The translations under genes and the position numbers were made by a program. A DNA stretch of 64,000 nt, taken from an uncultured virus (IMG/VR IMGVR_UViG_3300034073_004395). Its lineage: Duplodnaviria > Heunggongvirae > Uroviricota > Caudoviricetes. How positions within the stretch are numbered: the stretch's first letter is position 1; every line of letters starts with the position of its first letter. The stretch lies in the IMG/VR virus record IMGVR_UViG_3300034073_004395. One strand, given 5' to 3'. Positions 24,175 to 49,706 of this stretch are shown here, one piece after another. The notes under the pieces are model-generated. The model ran no database searches, was not told the DNA's origin, and was given only the letters and a program-made list of their open reading frames with translations.

Positions 24175-24891
24175 CTAATCAATAAATCCTATCGGAGCCG
24201 TAGCAATTTTTACGCCTGGAAGAATTCTGTCTCTACATAAAACCATTCCAGTAATTAAGCGTTCGGCGATAAAAGCAATTGCACGCTTGTCATATCCTTC
24301 AATGGAAAGAAAATGCTCTTTGTTTTCGCGCCAAATTGGAGCAAGTCCGGCGAATAGCATCGTCATAAAGTGCAAGTAAGACTGCCTGGGTCCGCGTGCC
24401 ATATTGCAGCCAATAAAGGAAGATTGAGCCCAAATCTTATCAATCTCCTCACGCGTAAAAATCCACTTTCCTTCATCTGCTAATTTGCGCGTAATTGCTG
24501 GCGCATCAAACGCGGAATGACCGCCATAAAACTGCTGTTCAAGCGTGCAAGAGAATTGAGCCGGCTCTGGTACATACAAAGTTTCTGGACAATACCATTG
24601 ATCTTCCGGCTCTAACCAATTACGTCGATACTGAGCATTGCCAATATTGTTTTCTTTTGCATTGTTAATCATCCAATGCACGCACGAAAGCTCTCCCCAC
24701 CGATCATTCAATGGAGAAAGCACGGCGTTTTCATCGTCAAAAACATAACCTTCAGCACGAAGACTTTCGCGCTCTTCATTGCTCAGTGCATGACTTCCTC
24801 CCATAATGGGAACAATGCGAGACCTAGCCGCGTAGCGCACCTTCTCGCTAGGAATGCACACGGCATAAATCGTGCTATCAACCATCGCCAT
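24175..24891 (-). CDS. DUF4422-like glycosyltransferase
   Basis: ELSC..W..IGNAQYRR..CNM..RAIAFIAERL. Confidence 0.7.
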   Translation of the reverse strand: MAMVDSTIYAVCIPSEKVRYAARSRIVPIMGGSHALSNEERESLRAEGYVFDDENAVLSPLNDRWGELSCVHWMINNAKENNIGNAQYRRNWLEPEDQWYCPETLYVPEPAQFSCTLEQQFYGGHSAFDAPAITRKLADEGKWIFTREEIDKIWAQSSFIGCNMARGPRQSYLHFMTMLFAGLAPIWRENKEHFLSIEGYDKRAIAFIAERLITGMVLCRDRILPGVKIATAPIGFID

Positions 24892-25594
24892 ACACCTTAC
24901 GCGTCTGCCACAGCTCATTGTAATTATTGACGCCCTTGGCGCCAAGCCCAGTTAAGTCGCCGCCGCCAGCAGGTTTGCTCCATGCCATGATCGTGCCATC
25001 GGGGAGCACAAAGGCTCTATTCTTCTGGCCGTGCATAGGCGTCAGCTCAAGGTAGTCGCCATAGACAAAATCAGCTTGACTGCCATTCGCCGCCAAAGCT
25101 TTGCCAAGCAGCGTGGGGCCAGTGGGGCACAATGGAGTGATGCCGTAATATTGCTCGATGCAATTTGCCACGATCATTTCAATGGCAGTTTGCAAAGCTG
25201 GATTATCTGGCTGGGAATAAAGCACTGTCGTGGCACACGCCCAGCTTGTATAACTAAAGCGCTGAATATCACGAAAAGCCAAGAATTTAATTCGTGGCCC
25301 AAGATCTACTGCATTGAAAGCCCTCACGCCAATATCAAAGTACCAGCCGCCAAGTTTGTTTAGCAAACAAAAGCGGCCAAGATCGGCCTTGTAAGAAAAA
25401 GGCTTAAGGGTGTCATATGCCCAAAGAACTTGCTCTTCGTAATTATCAGCAATGAAGGCCCGAAGTGAATCATTGTTATAAATGACATGTTTTGCTTCAG
25501 GGAAGCAAGCATCAATAGTGCCCGTAGCGTGCTCCAGGAACGGGCTAAGTTTTTCCGCTGGGTCAGTGGAAAGAAAAATTTGTGAAATTTGCAT
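24878..25594 (-). CDS. Glycosyltransferase, GT32/OCH1-like
   Basis: KADLGRFCLLNKLGGWYFD..TGPTLL. Confidence 0.8.
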   Translation of the reverse strand: MQISQIFLSTDPAEKLSPFLEHATGTIDACFPEAKHVIYNNDSLRAFIADNYEEQVLWAYDTLKPFSYKADLGRFCLLNKLGGWYFDIGVRAFNAVDLGPRIKFLAFRDIQRFSYTSWACATTVLYSQPDNPALQTAIEMIVANCIEQYYGITPLCPTGPTLLGKALAANGSQADFVYGDYLELTPMHGQKNRAFVLPDGTIMAWSKPAGGGDLTGLGAKGVNNYNELWQTRKVYGDG

Positions 25595-25596
25595 GA

Positions 25597-26820
25597 TCAA
25601 ACAATCTTTGCGGGAGTTCCAAAGCCTTTAAATTCAGGCGCGGCTGCCTTTGCATTAAGAGTGCGCTCTACCACGTCAAGAAGCTGCTGTTGAATATAAG
25701 GCCAAGTAAAAGGTTCTTCGTGCAGACGTTTGTAACACCATTGTCCATCTTTTTTCAGAGCATCGCGGTTTTCGTAGTAATACGACAAGATTTCTGCCGC
25801 ACTTTCAGGGTCAGGAAGCAGTCGCTCAAGACCATAATTCCGATCCGTTTCGGAAGCATTGCATTGAATGCGAGGCATCTCATCAAAGATCTCAGCCAGG
25901 CTCGTATGATCGGGCACAACTTGTGCCACACCAACAGAACCATGCTCGCTATTGACTAAGCCCCAGCCCTCTCCAATGCAAGTGTTAATTCCTACATCAG
26001 CGGCGTTGTACACTTTATTGAGCTGCTCAATGGTGAGGCAGTTATCCACAGAGAAATGAGGACTTGTCAAAATTAGTCTGCCCGTAGGGTCGAAGCCTTC
26101 ATCGCGGGCAATGCGTTTGAACAATGGAATGATCTCCCATCCCAAGTCTTTGCTGCCCATATTCAACCATAGGCGGGCATCATCTTTGTCTTTTGCAAAT
26201 TTAATAAAAGCCTTAAGCGTCAGATCAATGCGCTTACGCGGCTGATTTCTATTGCCATTAAAAACAATAAACACATCTTCTGGTACACCGAGCTCTTTTC
26301 TGCATTGCTGCTTATCAAGCGGAAAGAACTTTTCAAAGTCAGTACCATGGCCAATAATGTCAATCGGCTTGTCGTAGCCCATGCGCACCAATTCGTTATT
26401 CGCGAATAGCGTATACGTGGCAAGGCCGTCCCATTCTTCCATTTGAGCTTTCAGCTCCGGAAACAAACCGTAAGAATCAATGGGAGTATAGACAAACCAT
26501 TTGAAGCCCATCTTCTCCTTGAGTGACTTCGCTTGTTGCCATAAATTGATGGCAATCCAGATGTCGTTTGTCACCCACACCAGATCCGGCTTTTCAATCT
26601 GGATTATGCTGGCAATGCGATGCGATCCGAATGGATCTGATCCGTGCAGCATGGCTGGATAAACCTTGTATTTTCTCGCCTCGGGATGAGGATCGCCGTG
26701 GTAGTTCGTGCTCATCACCACCACCTCATGCTTTTCGGCCAGAGCGGGCAGCAAGTATTGAGCTACTCGCCCAAATCCTGTTTCTACAAAAGCATCGCCT
26801 GCGTAGAGAATTTTTGCCAT
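25597..26820 (-). CDS. Glycosyltransferase, GT4 (GT-B)
   Basis: TGFGRVA..GHGTD..NRNQPRKR..GEGWGL..E. Confidence 0.88.
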   Translation of the reverse strand: MAKILYAGDAFVETGFGRVAQYLLPALAEKHEVVVMSTNYHGDPHPEARKYKVYPAMLHGSDPFGSHRIASIIQIEKPDLVWVTNDIWIAINLWQQAKSLKEKMGFKWFVYTPIDSYGLFPELKAQMEEWDGLATYTLFANNELVRMGYDKPIDIIGHGTDFEKFFPLDKQQCRKELGVPEDVFIVFNGNRNQPRKRIDLTLKAFIKFAKDKDDARLWLNMGSKDLGWEIIPLFKRIARDEGFDPTGRLILTSPHFSVDNCLTIEQLNKVYNAADVGINTCIGEGWGLVNSEHGSVGVAQVVPDHTSLAEIFDEMPRIQCNASETDRNYGLERLLPDPESAAEILSYYYENRDALKKDGQWCYKRLHEEPFTWPYIQQQLLDVVERTLNAKAAAPEFKGFGTPAKIV

Positions 26821-26882
26821 GTTTCTCTTGAAATCTTCGTCATCATAAGCAGCTTCTATACTTACGGCACAAGGAGACAATC

Positions 26883-27572
26883 ATGCTGCCACCATCCTCT
26901 GTGCGCTTCTGTATTAGCACCTGCAATAAGTTTGCCGCTCATACACTGCCCAAGATCATCCCCTCTCTCACTCGCGCTGGAATTGGCACTAATGAAATCC
27001 TGATCATCAATGGAGGCCAAGAAAACTGGCAAATTGACCATTATGGCGACGTGCCAATGATTTGCACACCGCAAAACTCCTTTGAATATACGCCCCTCAT
27101 TGAAATTGTCGAACACAATCTCATGAGCCCTTTCTGGTTCCTCCTTCACGACACCTGCATTGCCGGGCCAGCATTCAAAAAGCTCGTCTACGATCCGCCA
27201 GAAGCTTTTGAAAAGGTGGCAATGAAGCACACGCCATCAATGAGCATCGGTCTTTACAGCATGGACTATCTCATGCGCCATAAAGACCGCCTCACGGCGA
27301 TTAAAAACATGGATGGCTCGCCACAAGCGTTGCAAGCATGGAAGCAATGGGGAGTACCTAACGAGGACTACATGCTCTGGAAGCTGCAAGACTCACCAAC
27401 TGGCCTTTACCACCCCGATAAGCATGGCGCTGATGAATGGAACTACCAAGGGCATGCTGATGTCTATGGAACTGGCATGCCTCGCCGCATAGAATATTTT
27501 CCACAGTTGGACCTGTTCAAAGCCAAATCAAACTGGCAAGGAGTGCAGCCAACACTTTGCATTGATATTTAA
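26883..27572 (+). CDS. Putative GT-A-like glycosyltransferase
   Basis: FCIST..ILII.GG..FLLHDTC; cluster context. Confidence 0.45.
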   Translation: MLPPSSVRFCISTCNKFAAHTLPKIIPSLTRAGIGTNEILIINGGQENWQIDHYGDVPMICTPQNSFEYTPLIEIVEHNLMSPFWFLLHDTCIAGPAFKKLVYDPPEAFEKVAMKHTPSMSIGLYSMDYLMRHKDRLTAIKNMDGSPQALQAWKQWGVPNEDYMLWKLQDSPTGLYHPDKHGADEWNYQGHADVYGTGMPRRIEYFPQLDLFKAKSNWQGVQPTLCIDI

Positions 27573-28549
27573 TGGCGCTCAAAATTGCAATTGTCGGCGG
27601 CGGCTGGACGGGATGCCATTTGGCTTCGCGTTTGATGGGCGAAGCTGATGTGACATTGTTTGAGCGCAATGAAATACTTATTTCTGAGGCGTCGTTGATC
27701 AATCAAAACCGATTGCACTATGGCTACCACTATGCCAGGAATCACGCCACGCGCATGTTGTGCAAAAATACGTTTGAGCGGTTCATGCTTGACTACGGTC
27801 ATCTAACAGAGAACATTCAAAATAATTTCTATGCAGTGTCAGAAGATGAAAGCCTGCTAGACGCAGAAACCATTCGACTTATTTTCAAGGATTGGCCACA
27901 TACGGAAGCGGACGCAGGCTTGCTAAATCACTCTTCACTGATTTTGCACACTATCGAAAAATATATATCACCAACTGCCACTGGTAAATACTTTGAAGAG
28001 TTATTGCTTCCCATTGTTAGAAGAGAAGAAATCAACGAAAGTTCTATTGCGCTGCTAAAGCAAGACTATGATTTTGTCTTTGATTGCACCAACAATTCTC
28101 TTTTGCCTGCTATCGACGGAGATTATTTCGAGGCAGTAGCAATGTTTGTCTATCGTCCAATTAAAACGCCACCATTTGGCGCCCTCACCTTTATTGACGG
28201 GGAATTGTTTTCCATTTATCCATATGGCTCTTCAATGTTTTCACTGAGCCATGTCAAGCTTGGCATTATTGAACAAAAACAAATGAATTGCTTCGGCAAT
28301 AACTATGGCTCAATGCATGATCGTCGATACTTAATGGAGGAGCATGTAATGCGCTACTGGCCCGAGTTTCACGATTATTTTAAATACGTATTTCCAGTGG
28401 TATCAATTAAAGCAAAAAGCAAAAATGCCAGCGCCCAGCGCACTCCTATCTTTAGGCAACAAGATAATCTGTTGTCTTTTTATACAGGCAAAATTCAAGG
28501 GATCTACGCTATCGAAGCAATGGCTAAAGAAGCCTTGTCTCAAGCATAA
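27572..28549 (+). CDS. FAD-dependent oxidoreductase
   Basis: IAIVGGGWTG..NQNRLHYGYHYAR..TGKI. Confidence 0.85.
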   Translation: MALKIAIVGGGWTGCHLASRLMGEADVTLFERNEILISEASLINQNRLHYGYHYARNHATRMLCKNTFERFMLDYGHLTENIQNNFYAVSEDESLLDAETIRLIFKDWPHTEADAGLLNHSSLILHTIEKYISPTATGKYFEELLLPIVRREEINESSIALLKQDYDFVFDCTNNSLLPAIDGDYFEAVAMFVYRPIKTPPFGALTFIDGELFSIYPYGSSMFSLSHVKLGIIEQKQMNCFGNNYGSMHDRRYLMEEHVMRYWPEFHDYFKYVFPVVSIKAKSKNASAQRTPIFRQQDNLLSFYTGKIQGIYAIEAMAKEALSQA

Positions 28550-29280
28550 ATGCTGCGGAATAGTGGATAGTCGCGCATGTGCTTTTTAGCTTGAAACAGC
28601 TCGCGAACAATTGCCCCTTCGTAATTAATGCCATCAAGCATCCGCTTTATTTGCTTGTGTTCGTATTTATTAAGCAGCGGACCATTGTCAGTATCGCTGA
28701 TATGCACATGGGCAATGTAAGGCCAGTAATGATTTAACAGCTTCTTGGGACTATCGCCTTGAAGCCAAGCATTATTGGTGTCAAGCATTGTCTTGACATT
28801 TTTAAGATTGCAAAAATCAATGTGATTAACAATCTCGTTGACTGTAAAGAAATAAGACCCTCCGTAGCATTTTGCTACAGGCTCGATGCAGAGGATGGAT
28901 CCGTTTGCTTCCAACACTGCATCCATGCGCTTTAAAACGTTCATCAAACAAGATGGACTTCCCTTGCGCAGATTAGGGCTCCCCAAAACAAAGCGCTTGA
29001 TTCCCATGAGAGAACCAAGGCTAATCACTTTTAGTAAATGCTCCGACACTGCTGTTGTGTCTTGAAAGCTTTGCACATTGCTTTGGAAAAACAATGCTTG
29101 AGCTGAATATGCCCATAAGCCATAGCTCTCGCGGTATTCTTTCGCAATATCGGCGCAGTCTTTATTTTGAGCGAAGATGCGTGCTGGTACGATTTCTAGC
29201 ACGTTAAATGCCCCCGCGTTAGCACTTAAGATTTGCTCTTCTTCTTCATCGGTCCAGCCGATGGCACTAATTCCAAGCAT
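28540..29280 (-). CDS. Sugar-phosphate isomerase/epimerase (xylose-isomerase-like TIM barrel)
   Basis: VLGSPNLR..CIEP..MLDT..HVHISD. Confidence 0.8.
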   Translation of the reverse strand: MLGISAIGWTDEEEEQILSANAGAFNVLEIVPARIFAQNKDCADIAKEYRESYGLWAYSAQALFFQSNVQSFQDTTAVSEHLLKVISLGSLMGIKRFVLGSPNLRKGSPSCLMNVLKRMDAVLEANGSILCIEPVAKCYGGSYFFTVNEIVNHIDFCNLKNVKTMLDTNNAWLQGDSPKKLLNHYWPYIAHVHISDTDNGPLLNKYEHKQIKRMLDGINYEGAIVRELFQAKKHMRDYPLFRSIYA

Positions 29281-29989
29281 TGATAAAAGCCTCCATCTTC
29301 TTCATTATCTTTGCTTTGTCATCTTTATATGGAGGAATATTGTATTCCACTCGCGGACCACTGCCTACTTTTGCGTCCGGAAAAAAGCGTTCAACAATTT
29401 CCGCTGTTTCAATGGGAGCTGTATACAGTTCATTCGTGGTGCCACTGATCGCCCTCTTTGTATCTGTCCACAAATCATCCAAACAGTACCATTGATAAGC
29501 CGAATTAATGTTAATGTTTTCCACGTTATTGTTTGTTAATAGGTCGAACAGAATATTCTTTTTAATGAGACGATGGAACAACGCGGGAAGACGAATGATT
29601 GTCACCACCGAATCGCGAAACGCGGCTTTCACAAGCATCTCGAAGATGTAACGATTAGTGCCATAATCAATAGCAAAAATTTCCGGAGTGCCATCTGCGT
29701 AGTACGCAGTTTGCCCATGCACGTCAATCGTTGAATAAACAATGACTTCCGCTGGCTTTGGAAGATGTCGGATGTTTTGAATGATGCAGCTCATATTGTC
29801 AAAGTCATCCAGCGGCGCTGCATTAGCCTTCCACTTCTCTGCTGGCATGCAAGCCAAGTACAGTCTTTCAATGGGCTCCTTGAACAATGGCGCCTCGTGA
29901 ATATTTTGGGAATTGAAGCAAGCGCCAAATTCATGCGCCTCACGAAGCACTTGCCCAATGAGGCCAGTGCTGCCAACTAAAACGTCCAT
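29267..29989 (-). CDS. NAD(P)-dependent epimerase/dehydratase-like protein
   Basis: LVGSTGLIG..PAEKWKAN..STIDV..YG.NR..RLPALF..KKN. Confidence 0.8.
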   Translation of the reverse strand: MDVLVGSTGLIGQVLREAHEFGACFNSQNIHEAPLFKEPIERLYLACMPAEKWKANAAPLDDFDNMSCIIQNIRHLPKPAEVIVYSTIDVHGQTAYYADGTPEIFAIDYGTNRYIFEMLVKAAFRDSVVTIIRLPALFHRLIKKNILFDLLTNNNVENININSAYQWYCLDDLWTDTKRAISGTTNELYTAPIETAEIVERFFPDAKVGSGPRVEYNIPPYKDDKAKIMKKMEAFINAWN

Positions 29990-29990
29990 C

Positions 29991-30671
29991 TCAAACGGCC
30001 ACAGTCGGCGCTTGTTGTCGGAAGTATTTTACGCTGCATCGGCAGTTCGCGCGGCATGCGCAGCGCTGTCCAGGAAGCGGCACGCTGCCAATGGGAATCA
30101 TGCCGCGAGCTGCATAGTCCAAGCAATCTTGACAATGCTTCGCTTGAGAATCAAGAATACGCCGCATCAAAGTGTATCCTTGTTTTTCTTGCCGAATACT
30201 AGCTCCTTCCCAGAAACTGCCGCGTACACTTTGAGCATATAAGCCGATGCGAGCAAGAGACTGGGCAACAGAAACGCGACCGCCCAGAAGGTCATTAGCA
30301 AAATTCTGTAGGTAAGCATATTCCACACGGAGACGCTGCCCGATGCGCCCCCAGTCGGTAGCCACCATTGTTTCGCGTCCGCCATTGCCGATGATTGCCG
30401 CTTGTACATGGACAAGCTTAAGCGCTTCCCTTACGCTTCCTTGCCATTGATCAAGCGTAATATCACCAGCGCTAAGCATACGTGTAAAACGCCGTAGCTC
30501 AGCGCCAAGCTTGTTAATTCGACCATCCACCAGTGCTTCCACTGCACGAGCGCTGAGAAAGCGTCCGTTAGCGCCGCGATACCGACCACTGATAGGGTCA
30601 TAACGCCAGGATGATTCGTCAAAACGAACAATGGCTTCAGAGAATTGAGAAAGATCATTGAGGCTGGACAT
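29991..30671 (-). CDS. Minor head morphogenesis protein (gpF/SPP1 gp7-like)
   Basis: HCQDC..PLPG..CRANCRC; directly after portal. Confidence 0.75.
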   Translation of the reverse strand: MSSLNDLSQFSEAIVRFDESSWRYDPISGRYRGANGRFLSARAVEALVDGRINKLGAELRRFTRMLSAGDITLDQWQGSVREALKLVHVQAAIIGNGGRETMVATDWGRIGQRLRVEYAYLQNFANDLLGGRVSVAQSLARIGLYAQSVRGSFWEGASIRQEKQGYTLMRRILDSQAKHCQDCLDYAARGMIPIGSVPLPGQRCACRANCRCSVKYFRQQAPTVAV

Positions 30672-35882: not shown

Positions 35883-35964
35883 GCCTCCATGGTGAAACTG
35901 GTAAACACAGCGGATTTAAGCTCCGCTGCCGAAAGGCTTGCAGGTTCAAGTCCTGCTGGGGGCA
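35883..35964 (+). tRNA. tRNA-Leu(TAA)
   Basis: Acceptor GCCTCCA/TGGGGGC; anticodon arm GCGGA-TTTAAGC-TCCGC; long variable arm; GGTTCAAGTCC T-arm; no encoded CCA. Confidence 0.92.
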
Positions 35965-36231: not shown

Positions 36232-36993
36232 CTACATTGCCAGTTCCTTGATCCTTTGCAGTGGAACGGCGGCCACCTGCGGAACAATACTGTTTCCTAA
36301 TTGCTTAAGTCGGTCCACCCTATTGGATAGCCCATCATCTCCTCGACAAAGGACGGGGACAGATAGGTAGCTCCTCCATTCTGGGTTGAGCATTGGACTA
36401 CAATTGCCCCAGGGAGTCGTCCCTTCTCCGCCGCTTTCTGGTAGTTCACATTCGGGCCGCTGTCCTTGTAGTCCCTTGTTGTTGGCGTGGGCAATAATCC
36501 AAATACGCTCTCGACGGTGGCAGGCTCCCAAGTCACTTGCTGGAATAACTGCCCATTCTGCATCGTACCCTGCTTTGGCAATTTGAAAGAGGGTTTCTTG
36601 GAACGTTTCCCCGTTTTTGTGGGATAGTAAATTTCTAACGTTTTCAAGCAAGAGGAAGTCAGGTTGAAGCTCCCTAGCCAAACGGATGATTTCATAAAAC
36701 AACACACTTCGCTCTCCATCGTATCCTGCCTGTTTTCCTGCGACGCTAAGGTCTTGACAGGGGAAACCTGCAGTAATGAGAGAAAGTCCGTTTGGACAAA
36801 GTGGTGCGATGTCTTCCGCTGAGAGCGAACGAACGTCCGTGAAGATAGGCGTATTGGGCCAGTGCTTGCGAAGCACTCTCCTGCAAGGCTCGTCTGAATC
36901 ACAGAAGGCAATGGTCTTGAAACCACCGACAAGTTGCTCGGCTGCATAGCTGAAGCCTCCTATGCCAGAGAAGAGATCTAGAACCGTAAGCAT
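36232..36993 (-). CDS. C5-cytosine DNA methyltransferase, alpha chain (motifs I-VIII and X)
   Basis: DLFSGIGG, GFPCQ, LENV, HRRERIWIIA, LGNS. Confidence 0.92.
   Translation of the reverse strand: MLTVLDLFSGIGGFSYAAEQLVGGFKTIAFCDSDEPCRRVLRKHWPNTPIFTDVRSLSAEDIAPLCPNGLSLITAGFPCQDLSVAGKQAGYDGERSVLFYEIIRLARELQPDFLLLENVRNLLSHKNGETFQETLFQIAKAGYDAEWAVIPASDLGACHRRERIWIIAHANNKGLQGQRPECELPESGGEGTTPWGNCSPMLNPEWRSYLSVPVLCRGDDGLSNRVDRLKQLGNSIVPQVAAVPLQRIKELAM
36297..36947 (-). CDS. Overlapping alternative-frame beta chain of the C5 methyltransferase (start uncertain)
   Basis: LLPTPTTRDYKD and LSPSFVEEMMGYPIGWT (motif IX, missing from alpha); EcoHK31I-like layout. Confidence 0.7.
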   Translation of the reverse strand: MQPSNLSVVSRPLPSVIQTSLAGECFASTGPIRLSSRTFVRSQRKTSHHFVQTDFLSLLQVSPVKTLASQENRQDTMESEVCCFMKSSVWLGSFNLTSSCLKTLEIYYPTKTGKRSKKPSFKLPKQGTMQNGQLFQQVTWEPATVESVFGLLPTPTTRDYKDSGPNVNYQKAAEKGRLPGAIVVQCSTQNGGATYLSPSFVEEMMGYPIGWTDLSN

Positions 36994-38419: not shown

Positions 38420-38489
38420 GGACAGCCCCAGGAATCGAACCTGGCATTCTGGGCTATCTGCCCAACGTGTACCACAACACTTAACCGTC
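38420..38489 (-). tRNA. Degenerate tRNA-like element (anticodon position GAT, Ile-like)
   Basis: Perfect T-arm CCAGG-TTCGATT-CCTGG; D-arm GTGT/ACAC; anticodon arm TTGGG-CAGATAG-CCCAG; wobble-rich acceptor; non-canonical A8 and A33. Confidence 0.5.
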
Positions 38490-42358: not shown

Positions 42359-42683
42359 CCAGTGCTAAACAAAAGCCCGCGCAAGAAAGGCTGAGCCAGC
42401 TCCTAAGTAATGGCTCGGGCAAATAGTGCGTATCACTAGACAGGGCTTAAAAATTGCTTTTTCTATCTAAGAAAGCTTGAACGGCGGCTTTAGGCCGCCT
42501 TCTTGCTAAAGACGATGGAAAGGAAAATGCGCGATCTTGTGCGTCATTTCAGCGCCTTGGGGCGCTTTCATTGGAGAAGCTAATCGTCTGAAACGCTTCA
42601 AGCGGCGCTCTCTACGAGAGCTTGCTTTCAGCGTATGGCAACTAGCTTTTTGCTAGTTAGCTTCGTCATGACAAGCTTTCGTC

Positions 42684-43043
42684 ATGACCGTCTATTCCAT
42701 AGAACCAACAAAGCTTTGCCAGCTTTGCAAAGAACGCAAGCCTCTCATCGCCTTCCCCTCCCAGCCTCGTAATCGTGACAACCTCGACTCCCGTTGCCGC
42801 ATGTGCATTCGTCAACACACAACATTACGCTCTCAATTAAAAAAGCAATTCCCGCGTCCATTGCCAAGCCCTTGTCCAATCTGCTCAAAACATACAGAAC
42901 GCTGGGTATTGGACCATTGTCATACAACAGACCAGTTTAGAGGCTACATCTGCAGCTCCTGCAATCTTGGCCTAGGCCACTTTGACGATTCTCCCGCATT
43001 AGTACAATCAGCACTGAACTATTTGCTAGGTATAAATACCTAG
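42684..43043 (+). CDS. Endonuclease VII-family protein
   Basis: CPIC..LDHCH..RGYICSSCNLGLG. Confidence 0.85.
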   Translation: MTVYSIEPTKLCQLCKERKPLIAFPSQPRNRDNLDSRCRMCIRQHTTLRSQLKKQFPRPLPSPCPICSKHTERWVLDHCHTTDQFRGYICSSCNLGLGHFDDSPALVQSALNYLLGINT

Positions 43044-43277
43044 AGGGTGAAAAAGCAGGTCATTTTTGATTGCACTTTTTTTGGAGGTATGCCCGGCCCA
43101 CCACTGTACTATTGCCGTACTAGTGCTCCCTAGTACACCAGTACCATCAGCCAAGCTTATGGCAAGCATAAGCAGAACTGTTTGAAGAAATGTTACAAAG
43201 TATCGAAAACTGGCGCACAGTTCTGTATGCTTTAAGTGCAGAAGCGATTCTGTAACGAACCTCGCAAACTCAAAGCT

Positions 43278-43424
43278 ATGTCAATTGCAGACATGTTCGC
43301 CGCTCAGTTACAAGAACTGAAGCAACGAGATATTGAGTCACAGCGTCGCACTCAAGAATTAATCGAACGATCCCGTCGTTTAATTGAAGAACTAGAGGCG
43401 ATGGATTGGGATTCGGAAGTATAG
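43278..43424 (+). CDS. Small coiled-coil protein (48 aa)
   Basis: Own promoter (-10 TATGCT at 43226) and terminator AGGCCCCT/AGGGGCCT at ~43430-43451. Confidence 0.6.
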   Translation: MSIADMFAAQLQELKQRDIESQRRTQELIERSRRLIEELEAMDWDSEV

Positions 43425-43607
43425 CTAAAAGGCCCCTACAATAGGGGCCTTCTTTATTCTTTATATTATGCGGCTATGCGCATAGGGGATATTCCCTCCG
43501 TTGCGCACTATGCGTGATGGCGCATACAGAGAGGCAAGACGAAGGCCCGTCATCCTGAGGAGCCAGGAGACGGGCTTGAGAGGCTATGGGAGAGGCCTGA
43601 GAGGCTG

Positions 43608-43838
43608 CTAGCTAGGAGGGTAGCCTATCCGCTTGAGACGGGCTTGAGAGGGGAGAGAGCGGAGGAGGAGGAGCCAGAGGCCAGGGAGGCGAAGGGAGAG
43701 GAGAGAGAGCCAGCCAGATTCTCGAGAGCGCCACGAGGCGAAGCGAGCGAGGAGGGGGAGGCCAGGAGGAGGAGCGGAGCGGGAGACGATGAGGAGAGCG
43801 CGAGAGGAGCGAGAGGGGAGACGGTAGGAGCGAATCAT
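43608..43838 (-). CDS. Island hypothetical protein (76 aa)
   Basis: ATGA overlap with upstream gene; L/S/R/P-rich. Confidence 0.5.
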   Translation of the reverse strand: MIRSYRLPSRSSRALLIVSRSAPPPGLPLLARFASWRSRESGWLSLLSLRLPGLWLLLLRSLPSQARLKRIGYPPS

Positions 43839-44059
43839 GCGAGGAGCTCCTCCTCTGCCTCTGAGGCCTCGAGGAGGAGCTCCTCGAGCTGAGAGGCCAG
43901 GGAGCGAAGGAAGGAAGCACGGGAAGGGGAGGCCTCCTCGAGCTCAGAGAGGAGGGAGGAGAGCGCCTCCTCTGCCTCCTCGAGAGAAGCGAAGGAGGCG
44001 AGGCTATCGTTCACGCCGTATTCGTCAGGAGCCGTGAGAGAGAAGAGAGGGAGAGCCAT
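43835..44059 (-). CDS. Island acidic protein (74 aa)
   Basis: MALPLFSLTAPDEYGVNDSLASFASLEEAEEAL..; preceded by cassette hairpin. Confidence 0.65.
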   Translation of the reverse strand: MALPLFSLTAPDEYGVNDSLASFASLEEAEEALSSLLSELEEASPSRASFLRSLASQLEELLLEASEAEEELLA

Positions 44060-44114
44060 GAGAGGAGAGCGAAGGAGAGGAGCGGGAGGCCTTGAGGCCT
44101 CCCTAAAGAGGAGC

Positions 44115-45230
44115 TCAGATGCGAGAGAAGGCGAAGGAGCCGCCACCAGCCATAGGAGCGAAAGCGCCAGAGCCAGGAGCGAGAGCGAAGCGAGGAGCAG
44201 CGTCAGGAGAGGCGCCTCGAGAGCGCTTGAGACGGAGGAGCACGGCGAGGCCAGAGAAGCCAGGAGCGGGAGCGGGATCGAGCATCCGTAGGTCGTTTGC
44301 GTCTCCATCGATGCACTGCAGGAGCGCCTCACGGCCTCGATCATCACGGAGGAGGAGGGAGCGCGGGAGCTCCTCTCCCTTGCTAGCCAGGATTGGCACG
44401 GCGAGAGAGAAGCCTGCCTCGATGGCATCGAGAGCGCGAGAGGCGCCTCCCTCACGATCAGCGGCGAGGGAGGCCGTCGTGTGGATGCCGGCCTGTCTCA
44501 TGGCCAGGAGGCCAGAGCGGCCATAGACGGGGGCCTTCGCGTAATCGTACAGATCAAGGAAGGGAGCGGAGCGGAGCGCTTCGGGGATCGTGCAGATGCC
44601 CTGAGAGATCTCACTCCCGAACAGAGCGGAGAGAGCCTCTGCCTCCTCACGAGAGAGGCGAACAGAGAGCCAGGCCTCTGTCCATGGGAGTTCTTGAGTG
44701 CCGTTAAGACGGAGAGCGAAGGGGAGGCTGAGACGCCGGGCCTTGCGATAAGAGAGGCCAGCCGCCCATAGAACGGAGAGAGCGAAGGCCTCGCGATCAG
44801 CGAGGAGCGCGAGAGCGCGGCGAGCTCTGCAGGCCCCCACGCTCTGACTGATTCCCCCATGGCCAGAGAAGGCGAGGCAAAGCTCCTGGCAGGCCTCTGA
44901 GGCGAAGGGGCAAGCATTAAAGAGGAGAGCTCGAGCGGTGAGGCCTTCTCTGTCTGCCAGAGCGCGGATGCCAGGGAGCTCTCCTCTCACGAGAGAGGCA
45001 TGAGAGCCAGGGGAGACGGCTCGAGCGAGGCCACGAGAGGGGAGGAGATGGAGAATCGAGGAGAAGGCGAGGCCGCTCCCTTTAGCGAGCTTTGCATTGG
45101 CAGAGCCTGAGGTGAGGAGGCTCTCAGGAGAGAGGCCGAACCTAGGGAGGAGAGAGCGAACGCGCTCAGGAGCGCGAGGAGCGCGAGAGAGGCGAGCGGG
45201 AGCGGGAGGAGCAAGGAGAGCGGGAGCCAT
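44115..45230 (-). CDS. GP88-family phage protein (Cys-triad, possible Fe-S)
   Basis: NAKLAKG..LHL.P..CPFASEACQELCL..G.G..RLNGT..YDYAK..IDGDANDLRMLD..L.LK resemble recalled GP88 motifs. Confidence 0.75.
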   Translation of the reverse strand: MAPALLAPPAPARLSRAPRAPERVRSLLPRFGLSPESLLTSGSANAKLAKGSGLAFSSILHLLPSRGLARAVSPGSHASLVRGELPGIRALADREGLTARALLFNACPFASEACQELCLAFSGHGGISQSVGACRARRALALLADREAFALSVLWAAGLSYRKARRLSLPFALRLNGTQELPWTEAWLSVRLSREEAEALSALFGSEISQGICTIPEALRSAPFLDLYDYAKAPVYGRSGLLAMRQAGIHTTASLAADREGGASRALDAIEAGFSLAVPILASKGEELPRSLLLRDDRGREALLQCIDGDANDLRMLDPAPAPGFSGLAVLLRLKRSRGASPDAAPRFALAPGSGAFAPMAGGGSFAFSRI

Positions 45231-45288
45231 GAGAACAGAGAGCGAGAGGGAAGGAGAGGCCTCCTCGCGGAGGCCATGAGGCAGAGCC

Positions 45289-45501
45289 TCAGGAGAGAAG
45301 GAGAGAGGCAGAGGCGAGAGGGAGCCAGAGAGCGAAGGCCTCGAGCTCTGACAGGCTCTGGCTCTCGTGAGCGATCGAGGGGGAGGCCGTCTCGATCAGA
45401 GAGTAGGAGCCGTGAGAGAAGGAGAGGCGAAGGCCTCGAGAGAGAGCCAGGAGGGAGAGGAGAGGAGCCGCGTCAGAAGCTCGATCGAGAGGGGAGAGCA
45501 T
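45289..45501 (-). CDS. Island hypothetical protein (70 aa)
   Basis: Preceded by cassette hairpin and CTCTGTTC leader. Confidence 0.55.
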   Translation of the reverse strand: MLSPLDRASDAAPLLSLLALSRGLRLSFSHGSYSLIETASPSIAHESQSLSELEAFALWLPLASASLLLS

Positions 45502-45553
45502 GGCAGGAACGAGGCGAACAGAGAGAAGGCCTCCCTATGGGGAGGCCAGGAGC

Positions 45554-45793
45554 TCAGGAGCGAGAGGAGCGGGAGAGCTTCTCTCCTGCCTCGCAGGCAG
45601 CAGCAGCAGCGAGAGCCACAGAGGCAGCAGCAGCAGAGGCGAACAGAGCGAAGGGAGCGGCGAAGGGAGCCGCTTCTCTAGCGGAGGGAGCCAGAGCGAT
45701 GCGATCGCCGTAGGAGGAGGCACAGAGTCCGAAGGCTACAGAGCCTGCGAACAGAGCGAGGGTAGGAGCGAGAGCGCGAACAGAGCGGAGCAT
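45554..45793 (-). CDS. Island Ala-rich membrane protein
   Basis: First gene after the promoter at 45840; two hydrophobic stretches. Confidence 0.55.
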   Translation of the reverse strand: MLRSVRALAPTLALFAGSVAFGLCASSYGDRIALAPSAREAAPFAAPFALFASAAAASVALAAAAACEAGEKLSRSSRS

Positions 45794-45839
45794 GAGACAG
45801 AGAGCGAGAGGGGAGGCGATTGCTCGCCTCATGCCAGAG

Positions 45840-45900
45840 ACAATAGGCGATACAGAGGGGGAGGCCAGAGCCTCCCGCTCCTCTTGAAATATTTCGTAAC
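45840..45900 (-). promoter_or_regulatory. Promoter: -10 TATTGT plus HLR1/RpaB-like box 37 bp upstream
   Basis: GTTACGAA-AT-ATTTCAAG at 45883-45900; AT-rich break in the island. Confidence 0.55.
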
Positions 45901-45909
45901 AATCCGCGC

Positions 45910-46080
45910 TCAGAGATCAGAGGAGGAGAGCTCCTCGAGATCAGAGAGAAAGGCCTCGATTGTGGGAGACGGCAGCCACCTAGCGAGCTCCTCGAGGAGG
46001 AGGGGGAGGCCAGAGGAGGCGAGGCCGAGCTCCTCCGCGCGATCGAGGAGCCGAGCTCGTAAGTAGGAAGGGAGAGCCAT
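45910..46080 (-). CDS. Island hypothetical protein (56 aa)
   Basis: MALPSYLRARLLDRAEELGL..LLEELARWLPSPTIEAFLSDLEEL; below ORF-track cutoff. Confidence 0.6.
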   Translation of the reverse strand: MALPSYLRARLLDRAEELGLASSGLPLLLEELARWLPSPTIEAFLSDLEELSSSDL

Positions 46081-46089
46081 GAGAGAGCC

Positions 46090-46266
46090 TTAGGAGGAGA
46101 GATCAGCAGAGCGAACAGAGAGAGGGAGCTCGGCACCTAGTGGGATGCCATGGCGAAGGCGAAGGAGGGAGCGCCTCTCACGGAGGAGGCGCTCCTCTGC
46201 CTCTCCTGAGAGGCGAGGGAGGAGGCGCTCGATTGTGGCGAGGCGCCTCTCGAGAAAGGAGAGCAT
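46090..46266 (-). CDS. Island hypothetical protein (58 aa)
   Basis: MLSFLERRLATIERLLPRLSGEAEERLLRERR..; below ORF-track cutoff; tightly packed. Confidence 0.55.
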   Translation of the reverse strand: MLSFLERRLATIERLLPRLSGEAEERLLRERRSLLRLRHGIPLGAELPLSVRSADLSS

Positions 46267-46275
46267 GGCAGAGCC

Positions 46276-46473
46276 TCAGGAGACGGGAGAGAACAGAAGG
46301 GAGAGGAGCTCCTCGAGCGCCTCCTCTCTGTCAGCTCGAGCCTCAGGAGAGAGCGAGGGGGAGGAGAGCTCCTCCTCGAGCTCGCGAGCAAACAGAGCGG
46401 CCTCACGACGAGAGGAGAAGGAGAAGCGAGGCCAGGAGAGATCAGAGGCGAGGAGTTCGTGAGTGGGAGCCAT
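46276..46473 (-). CDS. Island acidic protein (65 aa)
   Basis: Preceded by cassette hairpin and leader. Confidence 0.55.
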   Translation of the reverse strand: MAPTHELLASDLSWPRFSFSSRREAALFARELEEELSSPSLSPEARADREEALEELLSLLFSPVS

Positions 46474-46548
46474 GGGAGCGAGAGCGAGAGAACAGAGAAG
46501 GAAGGAGAGGAGGGAGGCCTCCCTTGAGGGGAGGCCAGAGGCAGAGCC

Positions 46549-46923
46549 TCAGAGGAGGCCGAGACGAGATGCGCGGCGAAGGAGAGCGGAGCGGGAGGCC
46601 TTCGCCAGAGCGGGAGCTTTCTCTCCTGCCTCTGTCAGAGCCTCGATCAACAGAGCGCGAGGAGAGGAGGAGGAGAGAGGCTCTGGCAGAGCGGAGGCGA
46701 GGCGCTCGAGCGAGGAGGCTACAGAGCGAAGGAGAGGAGCGAGACGGCCTCGAGCCTGCCAGAGGCGAGCGGTGAGAGCATGGCAGAGAGCCAGAGAGAA
46801 CAGGAGCGCCTCGAGAGCCTGAGAGGCGATCGCCTCCCATGGGAGAGAGGAGAGCGCCTCGATCAGATCAGAGAGAGGAGGGAAGGAGGGAGAGGCAGAG
46901 CCTCTGAGAGAAGGGGAGAGCAT
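46549..46923 (-). CDS. Island hypothetical protein (124 aa)
   Basis: First gene after the promoter at 46967. Confidence 0.6.
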   Translation of the reverse strand: MLSPSLRGSASPSFPPLSDLIEALSSLPWEAIASQALEALLFSLALCHALTARLWQARGRLAPLLRSVASSLERLASALPEPLSSSSPRALLIEALTEAGEKAPALAKASRSALLRRASRLGLL

Positions 46924-46966
46924 GAGAGCCAGAGAACAGAGAGGAGGCCTCGCGGCCTTGCCAGAG

Positions 46967-47027
46967 ACAATAGAAAGAAGGAGAGGAGGAGCCAGAGGCG
47001 CGGAGCCGTATTGTCACATCTCTTAAC
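46967..47027 (-). promoter_or_regulatory. Promoter: -10 TATTGT plus HLR1/RpaB-like box 37 bp upstream
   Basis: GTTAAGAG-AT-GTGACAAT at 47010-47027; same -10 context (CTATTGTCTCTGGCA) as the 45840 promoter. Confidence 0.55.
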
Positions 47028-47032
47028 ACCAG

Positions 47033-47180
47033 GATCATGATCATGATCAGAGCGGGATCGTGATCATGAGAGGGAGCGAGAGCCGATCATGATGAGGATC
47101 CCCATCAAAGCGCCATCGTGATCATGATCGTGATCAACCGAGAGTGTGATCATGATCAGTAGCGTGAATGATCATGATCA
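47033..47180. repeat. GATC/TGATCA array
   Basis: 14 GATC sites counted by hand in ~150 bp. Confidence 0.9.
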
Positions 47181-47582
47181 TGGCCAGTATCTGCTACGGA
47201 TACGTATCAGTATCAGTCAGGATATCAGCACACAGCCCTATGTCAGCGTCTCCTGACATGCGTGTATGCGCATATGCGTGTAGGCGCATAGAAGCATGGG
47301 CGAGGCCGAAAATGGGGGTGTGGGGAGGGCCTTACTATACCGCGTTCCCGTTAGTTTCCATACCATTTTTCATTTAGTCCCTTTACCGTGTTTTAACGAG
47401 TTTCCTTTACCGCCTTTCGTTTTGTTTCTACCAACCATGACCATCAAAAGCCGCCTTTAGGGCGGCTTCTTCACTGGCAAACGGCCCTCCTACGAAACTT
47501 TCATCATCATCGGCATAGAAATACCAGCCTTCCACTAATTCAGTGCCTTTACAGCAGTCTTCAGAAAAGAAATCAACAAGAA

Positions 47583-49706
47583 TCATGAGAATTCTCCAAT
47601 GATGTAGTCGAAAGGCCCTTCACCATGACCGATGCAATGCCCTGCAAGCAAAGCATGCCTGGCAAGACCATAAGGCCCTATTTCTGCATAGTTGTCTTTT
47701 AGCCATTGTTTATCAAAGAGCTTACCAGGCTTACCGCTCCTATCCCAGACAATGGAGAAGAACTTTCCATTATCAACAAAGTCTCCATATTCATCTCTTA
47801 TTTCGTAGTCATGATCTTTCGTTAAATAATCAATGCGGCTCCATAGTTGCTGCCAATTATTGATGCCATCTTCTGGATATACGTGAAGACCAAAGCACCA
47901 GCCATAAGAGCTTTTGCCAAGATGCAAAGGAGGCTCTTTTTCTTTGCCGCAATGAAAGCATTTAGGAGCGTGAAGATAGTAATTAGTGCCCATTATTTCA
48001 TCACCTGCTGAAGCCTCTTCCACAACCATTGCTCTTTGGTATCAGGGCGCATCAGCTCATAGCCTTCATGATCAATGATGCTATCACCAGCGCTGTCTAC
48101 ATATCCTTCAACGTCCCTGCGCCAGATGCCCCTGCAAGAGCCTTGCTGGTCAAAGACGGCAATAATGTCTTCCCGATCCTCCATCGCTTGCCTGACGTGG
48201 AAGAGAAGATCTCTCAATCGGGCCGCTTGGTAGCGGCCTTTAGTGGGAGGGAAATACGGGCCGTTGTCTTGATAAGTGGAAATGGTCAACATGGTTCAGA
48301 AAGCAGGGCGATCAGGAAGGGTTTCAGGCTCTTCTTCAGCCTCGTGGACAATTTCTTTGAGCTGGTCAATAATGCAGCGAATAGCGTAGGCAGCACCTGG
48401 CCCCACGTTGTCTAATGCTTCGTCCATTGTCCTAATTTCATCGTGCACGTCTTGAATGGTTTCAAAAGTCTTGAGGGCGTATGGAACACCCCATTCATCA
48501 TCGACAATGAGAGAGTAAGGCATTGTCATTTAAAGAGAGGGGAGAGGGCTGCGGGGGCAGCCCTTGGCTGAGCCAGGCCAAGCTTCACGAGGCAAGGCTT
48601 TAACGACACTCAGTTGCCGGTAACGCTCCAATGAAGAAAAATTGGGCGAGACAATGGTAGTGAAATCAGACGGTGGCCGTCGCTTTTGCTGGCAGCATGA
48701 TCCAAGCGGTGTAGTTAGCAGCAGAACGATCCACACGAATCAGTCCTTTCTTTTCTAATGCTTCGAGAGCGTTTAAATACAGTTCAAGGCGATTGCCAAC
48801 AAGAAAGTTCTTTGGTACAAAACATGGTGCATTTTTGTTGCGTTTTTGATGAGCAAGAAAGTAACAATAAAGATTGCGCTGATTGATGGAAAGTCCAGAG
48901 TTAATCATGAATGAATGATGTTGTTGAAGAACTGTTCAGCTTGCCATTTATGGTCAAAGATGCCGTAGGAAGTGGTATGGATGGAGAGTTCGCTTAAACG
49001 TTCCCAGCCATATGCTTCCCACTTGCGGGAACCATCGGCGCAGAAATATTGCTGAATGCCGTAGCCAGAGTGTTGAGACTGGCGGTCAGCTTCTAAGCGA
49101 GCTTCGTAAGAAGGATAATGTTTCATGATGAGAGAGGAGAAGGGGCCTTGCGGCCCCGTTGACAATCAGCGCTGTTGGTCGCAGATGCCCATGAGCATCT
49201 CACCAACGTACTGTTGAGCAGCGCGAAGCTTGTCGAACGCTTCATCACGCTCCTTGCGAGCTTGATAGTAGGCGTCAGGGCCTTGCGGATAAAAATCCCT
49301 CCCGTTAAGCTCCGCTACTGCAAGTGCGTCGATTGCCTTGTCAATGGCATCGTAAGCAGCAGCGTAACCATCTCTAAGATCCGTGAAGCTGGTGCCGTTG
49401 AGATGGATGGTGGGGATGGTGGCCATGGTTGCGAGAGGCGCGAACAAGAGAACAATACAGCAGAAAGGCCCTGTTTCCAGGGCCTGTTACAAAACGTCAC
49501 AATTAATAGAGGCTCTCAATGCGAAACGGGCCAAGCCTGCCCACGCGCAGAGCTTTTTCTTTTACAAATTGCTGACTATTTGTCTTGGTATTCTTTATTT
49601 TGTAGAGACCAGTTTCGGGAATAGCTTTAACAATGATATATTCTCCTCTCCATTGTTTAAAACCAAAGTCGTAAAGATCGACAATAAGACCAACAGAGAA
49701 TTTCAT
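47583..49706 (-). CDS. Cluster of small early hypothetical genes (47583-47993, 47993-48292, 48296-48529, 48666-48908 wHTH-like, 48905-49126, 49166-49426, 49503-49706)
   Basis: Co-oriented, tightly packed ORFs with coupled starts/stops. Confidence 0.6.

Follow-up and report, generated by a model that had tools for sequence, protein, structure and literature searches.

What keeps one 3.5-kb block of an otherwise ordinary phage genome written in a vocabulary of its own, down to the amino acids of its proteins? The block, which we call the island, occupies positions 43530 to 47030 of a stretch of DNA from an uncultured member of the Caudoviricetes (IMG/VR record IMGVR_UViG_3300034073_004395); "the window" denotes that whole stretch of 64,000 nucleotides (nt). 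Nine tightly packed genes, all on the minus strand, cover 2981 of its 3501 nt, and one of them (g7) encodes a GP88-family protein. Our data suggest that adenine on the sense strand of this island is kept scarce by continuing selection. Why it should be is a harder question, and we tentatively favor an answer at the level of the message.

The change in composition is abrupt and steep. On the plus strand the base fractions of 43530-47030 are A.257, C.233, G.407, and T.104, against.258/.248/.229/.264 (A/C/G/T) in the rest of the window; read on the sense (minus) strand, this is A.10, C.41, G.23, and T.26. The GC content moves from.44-.50 to.63-.66 in one or two 150-nt steps at both ends, and between them the plus strand is 67% purine, with a GC skew of +0.2 to +0.46 over 3.5 kb, and the sense strand is 67% pyrimidine. 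Dinucleotide observed/expected ratios make the bias larger than the mononucleotide skew: AG (1.79), GA (1.62), CT (2.25), and TC (2.13) are over-represented, and AA (.41), AC (.32), GT (.33), and TA (.43) are under-represented. The check by k-mer entropy and observed/expected counts that an earlier note on this DNA had proposed likewise reveals a bias beyond mononucleotide skew, with a 6-mer entropy of 8.94 bits in the island, 10.4 in mononucleotide shuffles of it, and 10.76 in flanking DNA. Every statement in that note about a sharply bounded island of about 3.5 kb between normal flanks held wherever it could be checked. Its hand count of 20 T and no TT within 45241-45480 is exact, and its remark that TT, TA, GT, and AC are scarce, with T mostly after C or A, is borne out by the dinucleotide counts; of the 363 T on the plus strand, 190 are preceded by C and 82 by A, 180 precede C, and the longest T-free run is 82 nt. 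Stops number 14-29 per frame where 48 are expected, and this scarcity produces long open reading frames (ORFs) in all six frames.

The island is no peculiarity of one record; it is real, and it is a trait of its phage family. An assembly chimera is ruled out, given that 30 of 30 related IMG/VR contigs carry the same island inside ordinary flanks. The borders are also bridged by Logan contigs from two runs not marked as the source, X4 (42900-44396 and 45327-47457) and X12 (46982-47159). At a short GCA/CAG-type run in g5 (45597-45636), unrelated metagenome contigs pile up and depth spikes in three runs, which is a mapping artifact.

A scan of viral contigs for GP88 gave 34 loci, 30 of them with 58-100% protein identity (clade 1). 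All 30 clade 1 contigs hold a sharply bounded island of 1.1-4.0 kb, some ended by contig ends, with sense-strand A of.087-.142 and C of.356-.427; a single island is present in each of two complete relatives (70.4 and 74.9 kb). In clade 2 (13 loci), where GP88 is ~48% identical to that of the window, the GP88 gene is A-poor and C-rich in 13/13 (A.13-.16, C.33-.37), and the six islands that could be delimited have A.12-.15, C.37-.39, G.27-.32, and T.16-.23. Clade 2 islands occupy the slot of the window's island in at least L050 and L052, whose downstream flanks are homologous to those of the window. The codons of clade 2 are ordinary high-GC ones (GCC, CTG, GGC, and GTG, also CCC). What the clades share, therefore, is an A-poor, C-rich, GC-rich sense strand, of which the CTC/GCT/TCT/GAG vocabulary of the window is, judged by this comparison, an extreme dialect. 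Island genes are more alike between relatives than flanking genes are. Among phage isolates (50,697 records), neither the near nor the distant search mode brought up DNA matching the island, and no protein matched g1. One match to this type of GP88, at 40% identity, appeared among 185,579 species genomes in a search with one peptide pattern, and hence of low sensitivity; it lies on a 7.7-kb contig (L058) in a metagenome-assembled genome (MAG) labeled Luminiphilus, and probably stems from a phage whose contig was binned into a gammaproteobacterial MAG. Our literature searches, partly of listings, brought up no account of an island of this kind.

The organization of the island, as far as it can be predicted, is as follows.

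43530 to 47030, minus strand: the compositional island, two likely transcription units arranged as back-to-back operons.
47010 to 47028, minus strand: P1, a conserved promoter-like element (TGTTAAGAGATGTGACAAT) resembling HLR1 (two direct octamers) plus an extended -10 element; the bias begins a few nt downstream.
46924 to 46995, minus strand: untranslated 5' leader of operon 1, with A 6% and C 39%, holding the CTCTGTTC motif.
46549 to 46923, minus strand: g1, 124 amino acids (aa), helical, clade-specific.
46276 to 46473, minus strand: g2, 65 aa, acidic, in some relatives only.
46090 to 46266, minus strand: g3, 58 aa, with a coding pattern in the alignment of relatives.
45910 to 46080, minus strand: g4, 56 aa, widely conserved.
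45884 to 45902, minus strand: P2, a second promoter-like copy (TTGTTACGAAATATTTCAA) of 19 nt, followed by a GGGAGGC..GCCTCCC hairpin.
45554 to 45832, minus strand: g5, 92 aa, hydrophobic and probably a membrane protein, with a coding pattern in relatives.
45289 to 45501, minus strand: g6, 70 aa, with a coding pattern in relatives.
44115 to 45230, minus strand: g7, the GP88-family protein, 371 aa, modeled as a radical-SAM-like partial barrel, with C107, C114, and C118 conserved.
43835 to 44059, minus strand: g8, 74 aa, rich in E/L/S/A and acidic, with a third-position excess in frame.
43608 to 43838, minus strand: g9, 76 aa, widely conserved, with a start overlapping the stop of g8.
43530 to 43607, minus strand: a 3' untranslated stretch that retains the island vocabulary (A 12%, C 42%).

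Motif and composition, which also set its predicted bounds, mark the odd spelling as a property of the transcription unit. Leader, spacers, and 3' end, 389 nt of untranslated sequence in all, show the bias as well (A 6.7%, C 43%, G 20%, T 30%), so it belongs to the unit and not to codon choice. The vocabulary starts at about the predicted transcription start, 0-10 nt past the promoter-like element, and this position argues both against codon usage and against a recombination scar. The element, which we read as an extended -10 and an upstream half-site, lies 17-28 nt before the composition switch in 15/22 clade 1 loci and abuts the switch in at least 5/8 clade 2 loci. The motif GARATRTKNCAA that its copies share occurs 3 times in 64 kb against 0.4 expected, at P1, at P2, and ahead of the convergent gene beyond the downstream border; P2 is the single stretch of ordinary composition within the island and has its near copy, P1, at the upstream border. 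The HLR1 consensus, the RpaB site, consists of two (G/T)TTACA(T/A)(T/A) octamers 2 nt apart, according to PMC6525291. The element agrees with it at 11-14 of 16 positions in 15/22 loci at a fixed place, a level to be read against random 100-nt windows, 8% of which reach 12 and 2% of which reach 13; likeness to an HLR1/RpaB-type promoter is suggestive only. Every spacer holds a GGGAGGCC/GGCCTCCC hairpin, and CTCTGTTC precedes the start codon in most. The sense-strand CTCTGTTC occurs in five copies of 85-100% identity (plus strand GCGAACAGAG.. at 45514, 45639, 45747, 46111, and 46932), often 10-20 nt ahead of start codons that lack a Shine-Dalgarno sequence, and may be a translation signal.

The genes inside this unit behave as genes. 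The island was aligned with 24 non-redundant relatives and mismatches were scored by codon position: they were highest at third positions in g1-g7 and g9, and in g8 once its start was set to 44059. Conserved residues and a third-position excess in all nine frames imply that the island proteins matter, and the "about 8" minus-strand genes of the earlier note are thus real, the count here being nine. Plus-strand ORFs of up to 211 aa are by-products of the missing stops, with no family match in Pfam, and three alternative-frame ORFs on the minus strand show merely the periodicity of the real gene that they overlap. Among 18 ORFs of both strands, GP88 alone reached its curated Pfam cut-off, three others remaining sub-threshold at E 0.01-0.07. 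PADLOC and NCBIfam returned 0 matches for all nine island proteins, and nothing over 42500-48500 reached a gathering score in Rfam. The 124-aa g1, for which the earlier residue counts (0 N, 0 Y, 1 V, 1 D, and 2 K) are exact, has 35 homologues, 51-96% identical and all from this clade; its model, at a predicted local distance difference test (pLDDT) score of 81, has a hydrophobic helix and, at the C terminus, a unit of three helices with the look of a helix-turn-helix.

GP88 is the one member of the module with relatives elsewhere, and it is a true Pfam match, as the earlier note had recognized (PF17338, 37.1 bits against a cut-off of 24.4, model positions 34-209 of 230; phrog_1617, E 5e-23). 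We collected 620 homologues at E<=0.001. Across 132 sequences C114, R174, and D313 are invariant, and C107, C118, K47, K50, and others are at least 90% conserved. The model is confident (pLDDT 95.3, predicted template-modeling score [pTM].93), and its best 20 VIA structure rows are, going by titles, presumably all radical S-adenosylmethionine (radical-SAM) enzymes, at Z scores of only 4.9-6.7, below the Z 8 guide of the tool. Foldseek gave no match to the model at E<=0.001, and the Radical_SAM Pfam family none at E<=0.1. The conserved cysteines 107/114/118 are spaced C-x6-C-x3-C, which differs from the canonical radical-SAM CxxxCxxC. Given this spacing and the low Z, we describe g7 as a GP88-family enzyme of putative activity whose modeled fold is radical-SAM-like, short of membership in that superfamily. 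A PDB sequence search with GP88 found nothing, a literature search on GP88 function yielded nothing usable, and the only Atlas leads were DUF7227 and DUF5131. In an isolate-phage collection, 20 records carry GP88 relatives, from phages of Mycobacterium (14), Xanthomonas (2), Stenotrophomonas (2), and Caulobacter (2), all high-GC hosts.

How far the spelling reaches into protein can be read from the codons. The island has 912, 140 of which are CTC, and eleven (CTC, GCT, TCT, GAG, TCC, CGC, GCC, GGC, CCT, TTC, and CCC) account for 604. On the sense strand A is depleted and C enriched at all three codon positions, with A at 9.4/13.7/7.5% for positions 1/2/3 where 13 backbone genes have 29/30/21%. 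L, A, S, R, and P are up, and K, N, T, V, I, D, Q, and Y are down 2.4- to 10-fold; Val, Thr, Ile, and Tyr fall 2.4- to 4.4-fold, and Asp drops from 6.1 to 2.5% while Glu (GAG, template CTC) holds steady at 6.6%. The choice among 4-fold degenerate codons depends on context (CTC 140 versus CTT 12, GGC 38 versus GGT 2, and CGC 50 versus CGT 15, but GCT 81 versus GCC 46), which means that TT and GT are avoided besides A. In GP88 of the window, L+S+A+R+P make up 61% of residues, compared with a mean of 40% in 120 distant homologues. The shift is also seen inside 239 columns aligned with distant GP88 homologues (L 17% versus 9%, A 17% versus 10%, V 2.5% versus 6.7%, and K 2.5% versus 6.2%), which supports the earlier proposal that protein composition has been bent by a constraint at the nucleic acid level.

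Such a composition could be a relic, the product of a mutational bias, or the object of selection. Divergence at 4-fold sites between clade 1 subclades amounts to 0.3-0.6, which nearly saturates them given this composition, and the make-up of the island has nonetheless stayed unchanged, with no drift toward the 49-50% GC of the backbone. We polarized changes on six young groups in the GP88 alignment and counted, at third positions, 33 changes to A versus 11 from A. In a control, a stationary reversible model simulated on the same tree with the same filter, an A difference of at least 22 arose in 1/200 simulations, and in 0-1/80 under each of five parameter sets. New A thus seems to arise more often than it persists, a modest result. 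An excess of C losses on the same branches (93 versus 48) we set aside as produced by the filter, simulations giving 96 versus 53. A composition kept at near-saturating divergence and the young excess of A together favor selection over a relic or a mutation bias, and suggest that selection continues to keep sense-strand A low. Biased gene conversion, for its part, could not produce a difference between A and T within a single strand. Mutagenesis by a reverse transcriptase was likewise rejected: PF00078 matched nothing in 3 related genomes, of which 2 are rated complete, and no such PHROG occurs among 66 ORFs of the window.

The target of that selection, we infer, would be the RNA. The island would be a conserved early or accessory module of two operons, encoding the GP88-family enzyme and eight small clade-specific proteins. 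Its message would be poor in A and nearly free of UU, UA, and AU-rich single-stranded stretches, the few A being mostly locked in GAG:CUC pairs; together with the GC hairpins between genes, this would leave few sites for A/U-dependent RNases such as cyanobacterial RNase E, and the message could still be expressed while ordinary mRNAs are destroyed. The single-stranded sites at which cyanobacterial RNase E cleaves RNA have A at -3/-4 and U at +2, according to PMC8682795. A-N3-U pairs fall from 58-75 per kb in the flanks to 17-27 in the island, the predicted pairing of A rises to 0.60 from 0.42, and predicted unpaired A is down about four-fold. A message so rich in C would carry its own risk, in that Rho, which elsewhere ends transcripts rich in C and poor in G, targets RNA stretches of >150 nt with C well above G and rich in T (PMC13323073), and the sense strand has such a Rho-utilization-like make-up over 3.5 kb (C.41, G.23, T.26), by composition only. 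Rho is, however, absent from cyanobacteria, according to PMC12642595, and the C-rich dialect may therefore be affordable in such hosts. We regard this reading, an A-poor transcript that would escape A/U-dependent RNases in a Rho-less host, as tentative: it is the one we prefer, at a confidence well short of even.

Several observations weigh against it. The depletion of A-U pairs is not concentrated at the spacing that RNase E requires (k=1 0.31, k=2 0.55, k=3 0.69), the pairing of A is fully matched by first-order Markov copies of the island, and folding z-scores are ordinary, with a mean of -0.79 against -0.7 to -1.1 in the flanks; on the latter two grounds we rejected a special RNA structure. 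The recoding is confined to this module, other phage genes being ordinary, and RNases offer no reason why clade 1 should avoid GU and be depleted in Val. With more G and less T retained in clade 2, the clades have just an A-poor, C-rich, GC-rich strand in common. The young-branch test covers one gene under a simple site-independent model, and the 3:1 ratio for A was reached in 1-11/80 simulations, depending on the parameter set. None of 20 listed runs is of RNA, the transcript bounds rest on motif and composition, the cyanobacterial host is inferred, and the relatives are all metagenomic. Constraints on the RNA and on the template DNA are, moreover, complementary and inseparable by sequence.

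A bolder version of the RNase-escape reading would make the island a "fail-safe" adenine-free operon, whose messages are made and survive when ordinary mRNAs cannot. Settings for it would include host RNA-targeting defenses (an RNase E surge, HEPN or CRISPR collateral RNases, or mRNA interferases) or the phage's own host shut-off. We consider this unlikely as matters stand; if true, the design would be possible only in hosts without Rho.

Foremost among the rivals is a local directional mutation pressure, in which a transcription- or single-stranded-DNA-linked process peculiar to this unit turns sense A into C (template T into G). Neutral sites would then lie at the mutational equilibrium and the proteins would drift after them, much as genome-wide GC pressure moves amino-acid usage. 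It would explain why the least constrained sites are the most extreme (A of 6.7% in spacers, 7.5% at third positions, and 13.7% at second positions), why the rise of L, A, S, R, and P and the fall of K, N, T, I, D, Q, and Y match the codon prediction for A-to-C change, and why the bounds of the bias coincide with the transcription unit. The young branches speak against it, for A gains exceed losses there beyond stationary simulations. The known kind of transcription-associated damage, moreover, depletes C on the non-template strand, the opposite sign, none of the 3 related genomes has a reverse transcriptase, and the context rules at 4-fold sites (CTC over CTT, GCT over GCC) need extra assumptions. 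On balance this pressure strikes us as an unlikely cause.

A second rival places the constraint on the template strand, from which T would have been removed so that fewer ultraviolet (UV) dimers, arising in a sunlit host, or modified thymines block the polymerase and the genes can be read even from damaged or modified DNA. The template has 43 TT in 3.5 kb where backbone density would give ~300, T-containing dipyrimidines fall from ~750 to 413, and the promoter-like element resembles the high-light HLR1 at the 11-14 of 16 positions given above (consensus from PMC6525291). Spore photoproduct lyase is among the radical-SAM matches of GP88 (rank 12, Z 5.3), and a cluster of sugar-transferase, flavin adenine dinucleotide (FAD)-oxidoreductase, and TIM-barrel genes could modify DNA. 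The lyase match is, however, no better than those to other radical-SAM enzymes, and the pattern of loss is wrong in detail. The T that remain on the template sit mostly in CTC, with 190 of 363 after C and 180 before it, and so keep two dipyrimidine steps; Asp falls while Glu, which keeps template dipyrimidines, does not; and the codons of Val, Thr, Ile, and Tyr, which give no template dipyrimidine, are depleted all the same. The earlier suggestion of TT photodimers on the template thus accounts for the loss of TT and leaves these three features unexplained, and we rate template hardening as distinctly unlikely.

Could the island instead be a foreign cassette that retains the composition of a high-GC donor, its two dialects being two acquisitions in one hot spot? 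The high-GC hosts of all 20 isolate records with GP88 relatives, the ordinary high-GC codon usage of clade 2, and the greater likeness of island genes than of flanking genes, which fits a mosaic module, would suit such an origin, as would Synechococcus phage S-CBS4, in which no such island is present in the 40.8 of 69.4 kb examined, the syntenic junction included. A cassette should ameliorate, and this one has not: A stays at 9-14% and C at 36-43% in 30/30 contigs at a 4-fold divergence of 0.3-0.6. No donor with a CTC/GCT/TCT dialect turned up among the 50,697 phage records, the species genomes gave the single match described above, the start of the bias is marked by a promoter rather than a recombination scar, and the island lacks mobility genes. 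We hold a foreign origin to be improbable.

We give still less credence to the idea that the nucleic acid itself is the product, either as stable R-loops formed by the purine-rich antisense strand (origin priming beside the repeat arrays) or as an abundant CU-rich sense RNA that soaks up a host factor, for which S1, Shine-Dalgarno sequences, or, in hosts that have it, Rho would be candidates. The 67% purine plus strand, a convergent promoter of the same type pointing into the island, adjoining repeat arrays that resemble origin or operator sites, and 33 sense-strand copies of CCTCCT, which we take to be the anti-Shine-Dalgarno core, are all compatible with it. The coding signal in all nine frames shows that the proteins matter, a hairpin separates the convergent gene from the island, and the purine skew is much weaker in clade 2.

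Restriction sites bear most directly on the mechanism that the earlier note had put forward. The palindromes it said were retained are present (GGCC 48, GATC 20, and CGATCG 5), and the island is in fact denser in palindromes than the rest of the window, with 62 versus 53 per kb of 4 bp and 24 versus 12.8 of 6 bp; its 84 6-mer palindromes exceed a Markov expectation of 66.7 (standard deviation 7.9). CTCGAG (19), GAGCTC (18), AGGCCT (17), and CGATCG (5) total 59 copies in the island, and 0, 3, 3, and 1 in the remaining 60 kb. The backbone avoids many palindromes that contain G and C, falling short of maximal-order Markov expectation for CAGCTG (0 versus 16), GAGCTC (3 versus 17.1), CGATCG (1 versus 10.5), and AGGCCT (3 versus 10.2), and of base-composition expectation for CTCGAG (0 versus 13.3) and CCCGGG (0 versus 11.1). 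Across 13 divergent islands, CTCGAG occurs 153 times against 99.5 expected, and in their flanks once against 16.6. Outside 43400-47300 the backbone also lacks TTCGAA (0 versus 7 expected), CACGTG (0 versus 6.7), and CCGCGG (0 versus 6.6). Avoidance of this kind in the backbone has the form of a classic restriction-avoidance signature and may point to host enzymes. A C-5 cytosine DNA methyltransferase gene at 36235-36993 (minus strand; PF00145, E 3e-49) could bear on the palindrome pattern. Recoding to minimize restriction sites is contradicted by these counts, the island concentrating the very sites that the backbone avoids. Two lineages do purge sites inside the island, L020 for CTCGAG (0 versus 5.8 expected) and L029 for TCGA (1 versus 13.7), from which it follows that restriction pressure can act there and yet is not the creator of the vocabulary. 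That the island is a first-injected segment stripped of restriction sites, CRISPR protospacer-adjacent motifs (PAMs), or modification sites is thus very improbable, even with 46/64 hexamer palindromes absent from it, GT and AC at a third of expectation, CCGG at 2 versus 17.5 expected, and the ends of the S-CBS4 record falling at the syntenic place, for CCGG is equally depleted in the flanks (observed/expected 0.32 versus 0.27) and is no trait of the island, the 115 GT and AC that remain mean that PAMs are thinned and not removed, and the terminase genes lie 12 kb away.

By its genes, the window is an S-CBS4-like freshwater cyanosiphovirus, with 63-69% DNA identity to the cyanophage ribonucleotide reductase and neighboring genes and the gene order of S-CBS4 (tail, head, portal, terminase, methylase, reductase, [island], small genes, primase-helicase, annealing protein, and exonuclease). 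IMG/VR classes the relatives G002-G004 as linear, and no end repeats were found. Between portal and protease (24178-30671) lie genes for two glycosyltransferases, an FAD oxidoreductase-like protein, and a xylose-isomerase-like TIM-barrel protein, for which virion or DNA modification is possible. The tRNA genes Leu(TAA) (35883-35964, plus strand) and Ile(GAT) (38420-38489, minus strand) serve A/T-rich codons nearly unused in the island. The features that adjoin the island are these.

47258 to 47291, no strand assigned: TATGCGC..GCGCATA palindromes upstream of P1, found by sequence and a repeat search.
47030 to 47190, no strand assigned: an array of GATCATGATC-type palindromic repeats upstream of P1, with other repeat words at the same place in relatives.
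43474 to 43526, no strand assigned: TATGCGC..GCGCATA palindromes at the downstream border; the other border is flanked by the same motif family.
43430 to 43450, no strand assigned: a GC-rich hairpin between the island and the convergent gene, from its sequence a likely two-way terminator.
43278 to 43424, plus strand: the convergent gene, 48 aa, GC 44% and of ordinary composition here.
43187 to 43198, plus strand: a third promoter-like motif copy, upstream of the small convergent gene, found by a motif search.

The convergent gene and the island share a promoter motif. In 10 relatives, homologues of this gene (seven different sequences with 45-52% identity, at loci L003, L005, L006, L010, L015, L021, and L030) have a GC content of 60-64% and are rich in CTCGAG and GAGCTC. 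Upstream of the island, 47030-47580 is a 550-nt non-coding region of repeat arrays, in which three or four GCGGTAWAGGGACT-like units adjoin a 52-aa gene and many GATCATGATC palindromes follow. Relatives have the same layout with other palindrome words (TGATACGTATCA, CTAGTACGTTTGTACTAC, TAAATATACCCTACC, and others), and the region looks like an origin or an immunity/operator region of lineage-specific specificity. TATGCGC..GCGCATA palindromes flank both island ends in most relatives of both clades and are possible sites of one protein at both borders, for looping or insulation.

Four known systems invite comparison. GC-rich islands, or morons, of phages share with this one a sharp step, an own promoter and terminator (here predicted), accessory genes, and a mosaic distribution. 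This island differs in its constancy through near-saturating divergence (30 contigs), its strand asymmetry, its start at a promoter, and the lack of a donor among the records searched and of mobility genes. Diversity-generating retroelements also lose sense-strand adenine, in a region of ~0.1 kb as against 3.5 kb here, and the island sequences are conserved and not diversified; there is no template/variable repeat pair in 43300-47700, only short vocabulary-type repeat families of 60-94% identity. The pre-early (first-step-transfer) region of T5-like phages groups a few early genes apart from the remaining genome and is said to lack certain restriction sites. That region is the first-entering genome end, within a terminal repeat, whereas the island here is known from contigs alone and is enriched, not depleted, in the sites its backbone avoids (CTCGAG 19 versus 0, GAGCTC 18 versus 3); we know of no whole-vocabulary recoding in T5. 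GP88 (PF17338) itself belongs to the right-arm genes of mycobacteriophages, which have in common with g7 a passed Pfam threshold and conserved Cys/Arg/Asp columns, and differ from it in their residue make-up, L/S/A/R/P being far heavier here (61% versus 40%).

The closest conceptual parallel is the Rho-driven purine bias of bacterial genes, the "hidden code" described in PMC13323073, which is likewise a strand-oriented constraint on whole transcripts that shapes the choice of codons and amino acids. The island is opposite in sign, extreme in degree (67% pyrimidine on the sense strand), limited to one 3.5-kb module, and set in hosts that are presumed to lack Rho. A mirror image of this bias, found where Rho is presumably absent, turns "what else reads transcript composition?" into a testable question. 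The island offers a natural case in which a nucleic acid constraint overrides protein composition, with a GP88 made up to 61% of L/S/A/R/P that is still modeled with confidence (pLDDT 95), and it comes with a boundary placed at a promoter-like element, a locus with two dialects, and natural replicates by the dozen. A local mutational process, should that be the cause, would be one not known before, and the answer promises to be novel either way. Were nuclease evasion the cause, and above all if the fail-safe version should prove true, the nucleotide vocabulary would be a general, readable signature of nuclease-proof genes, and one that could be used to find counter-defense genes and modules in metagenomes.

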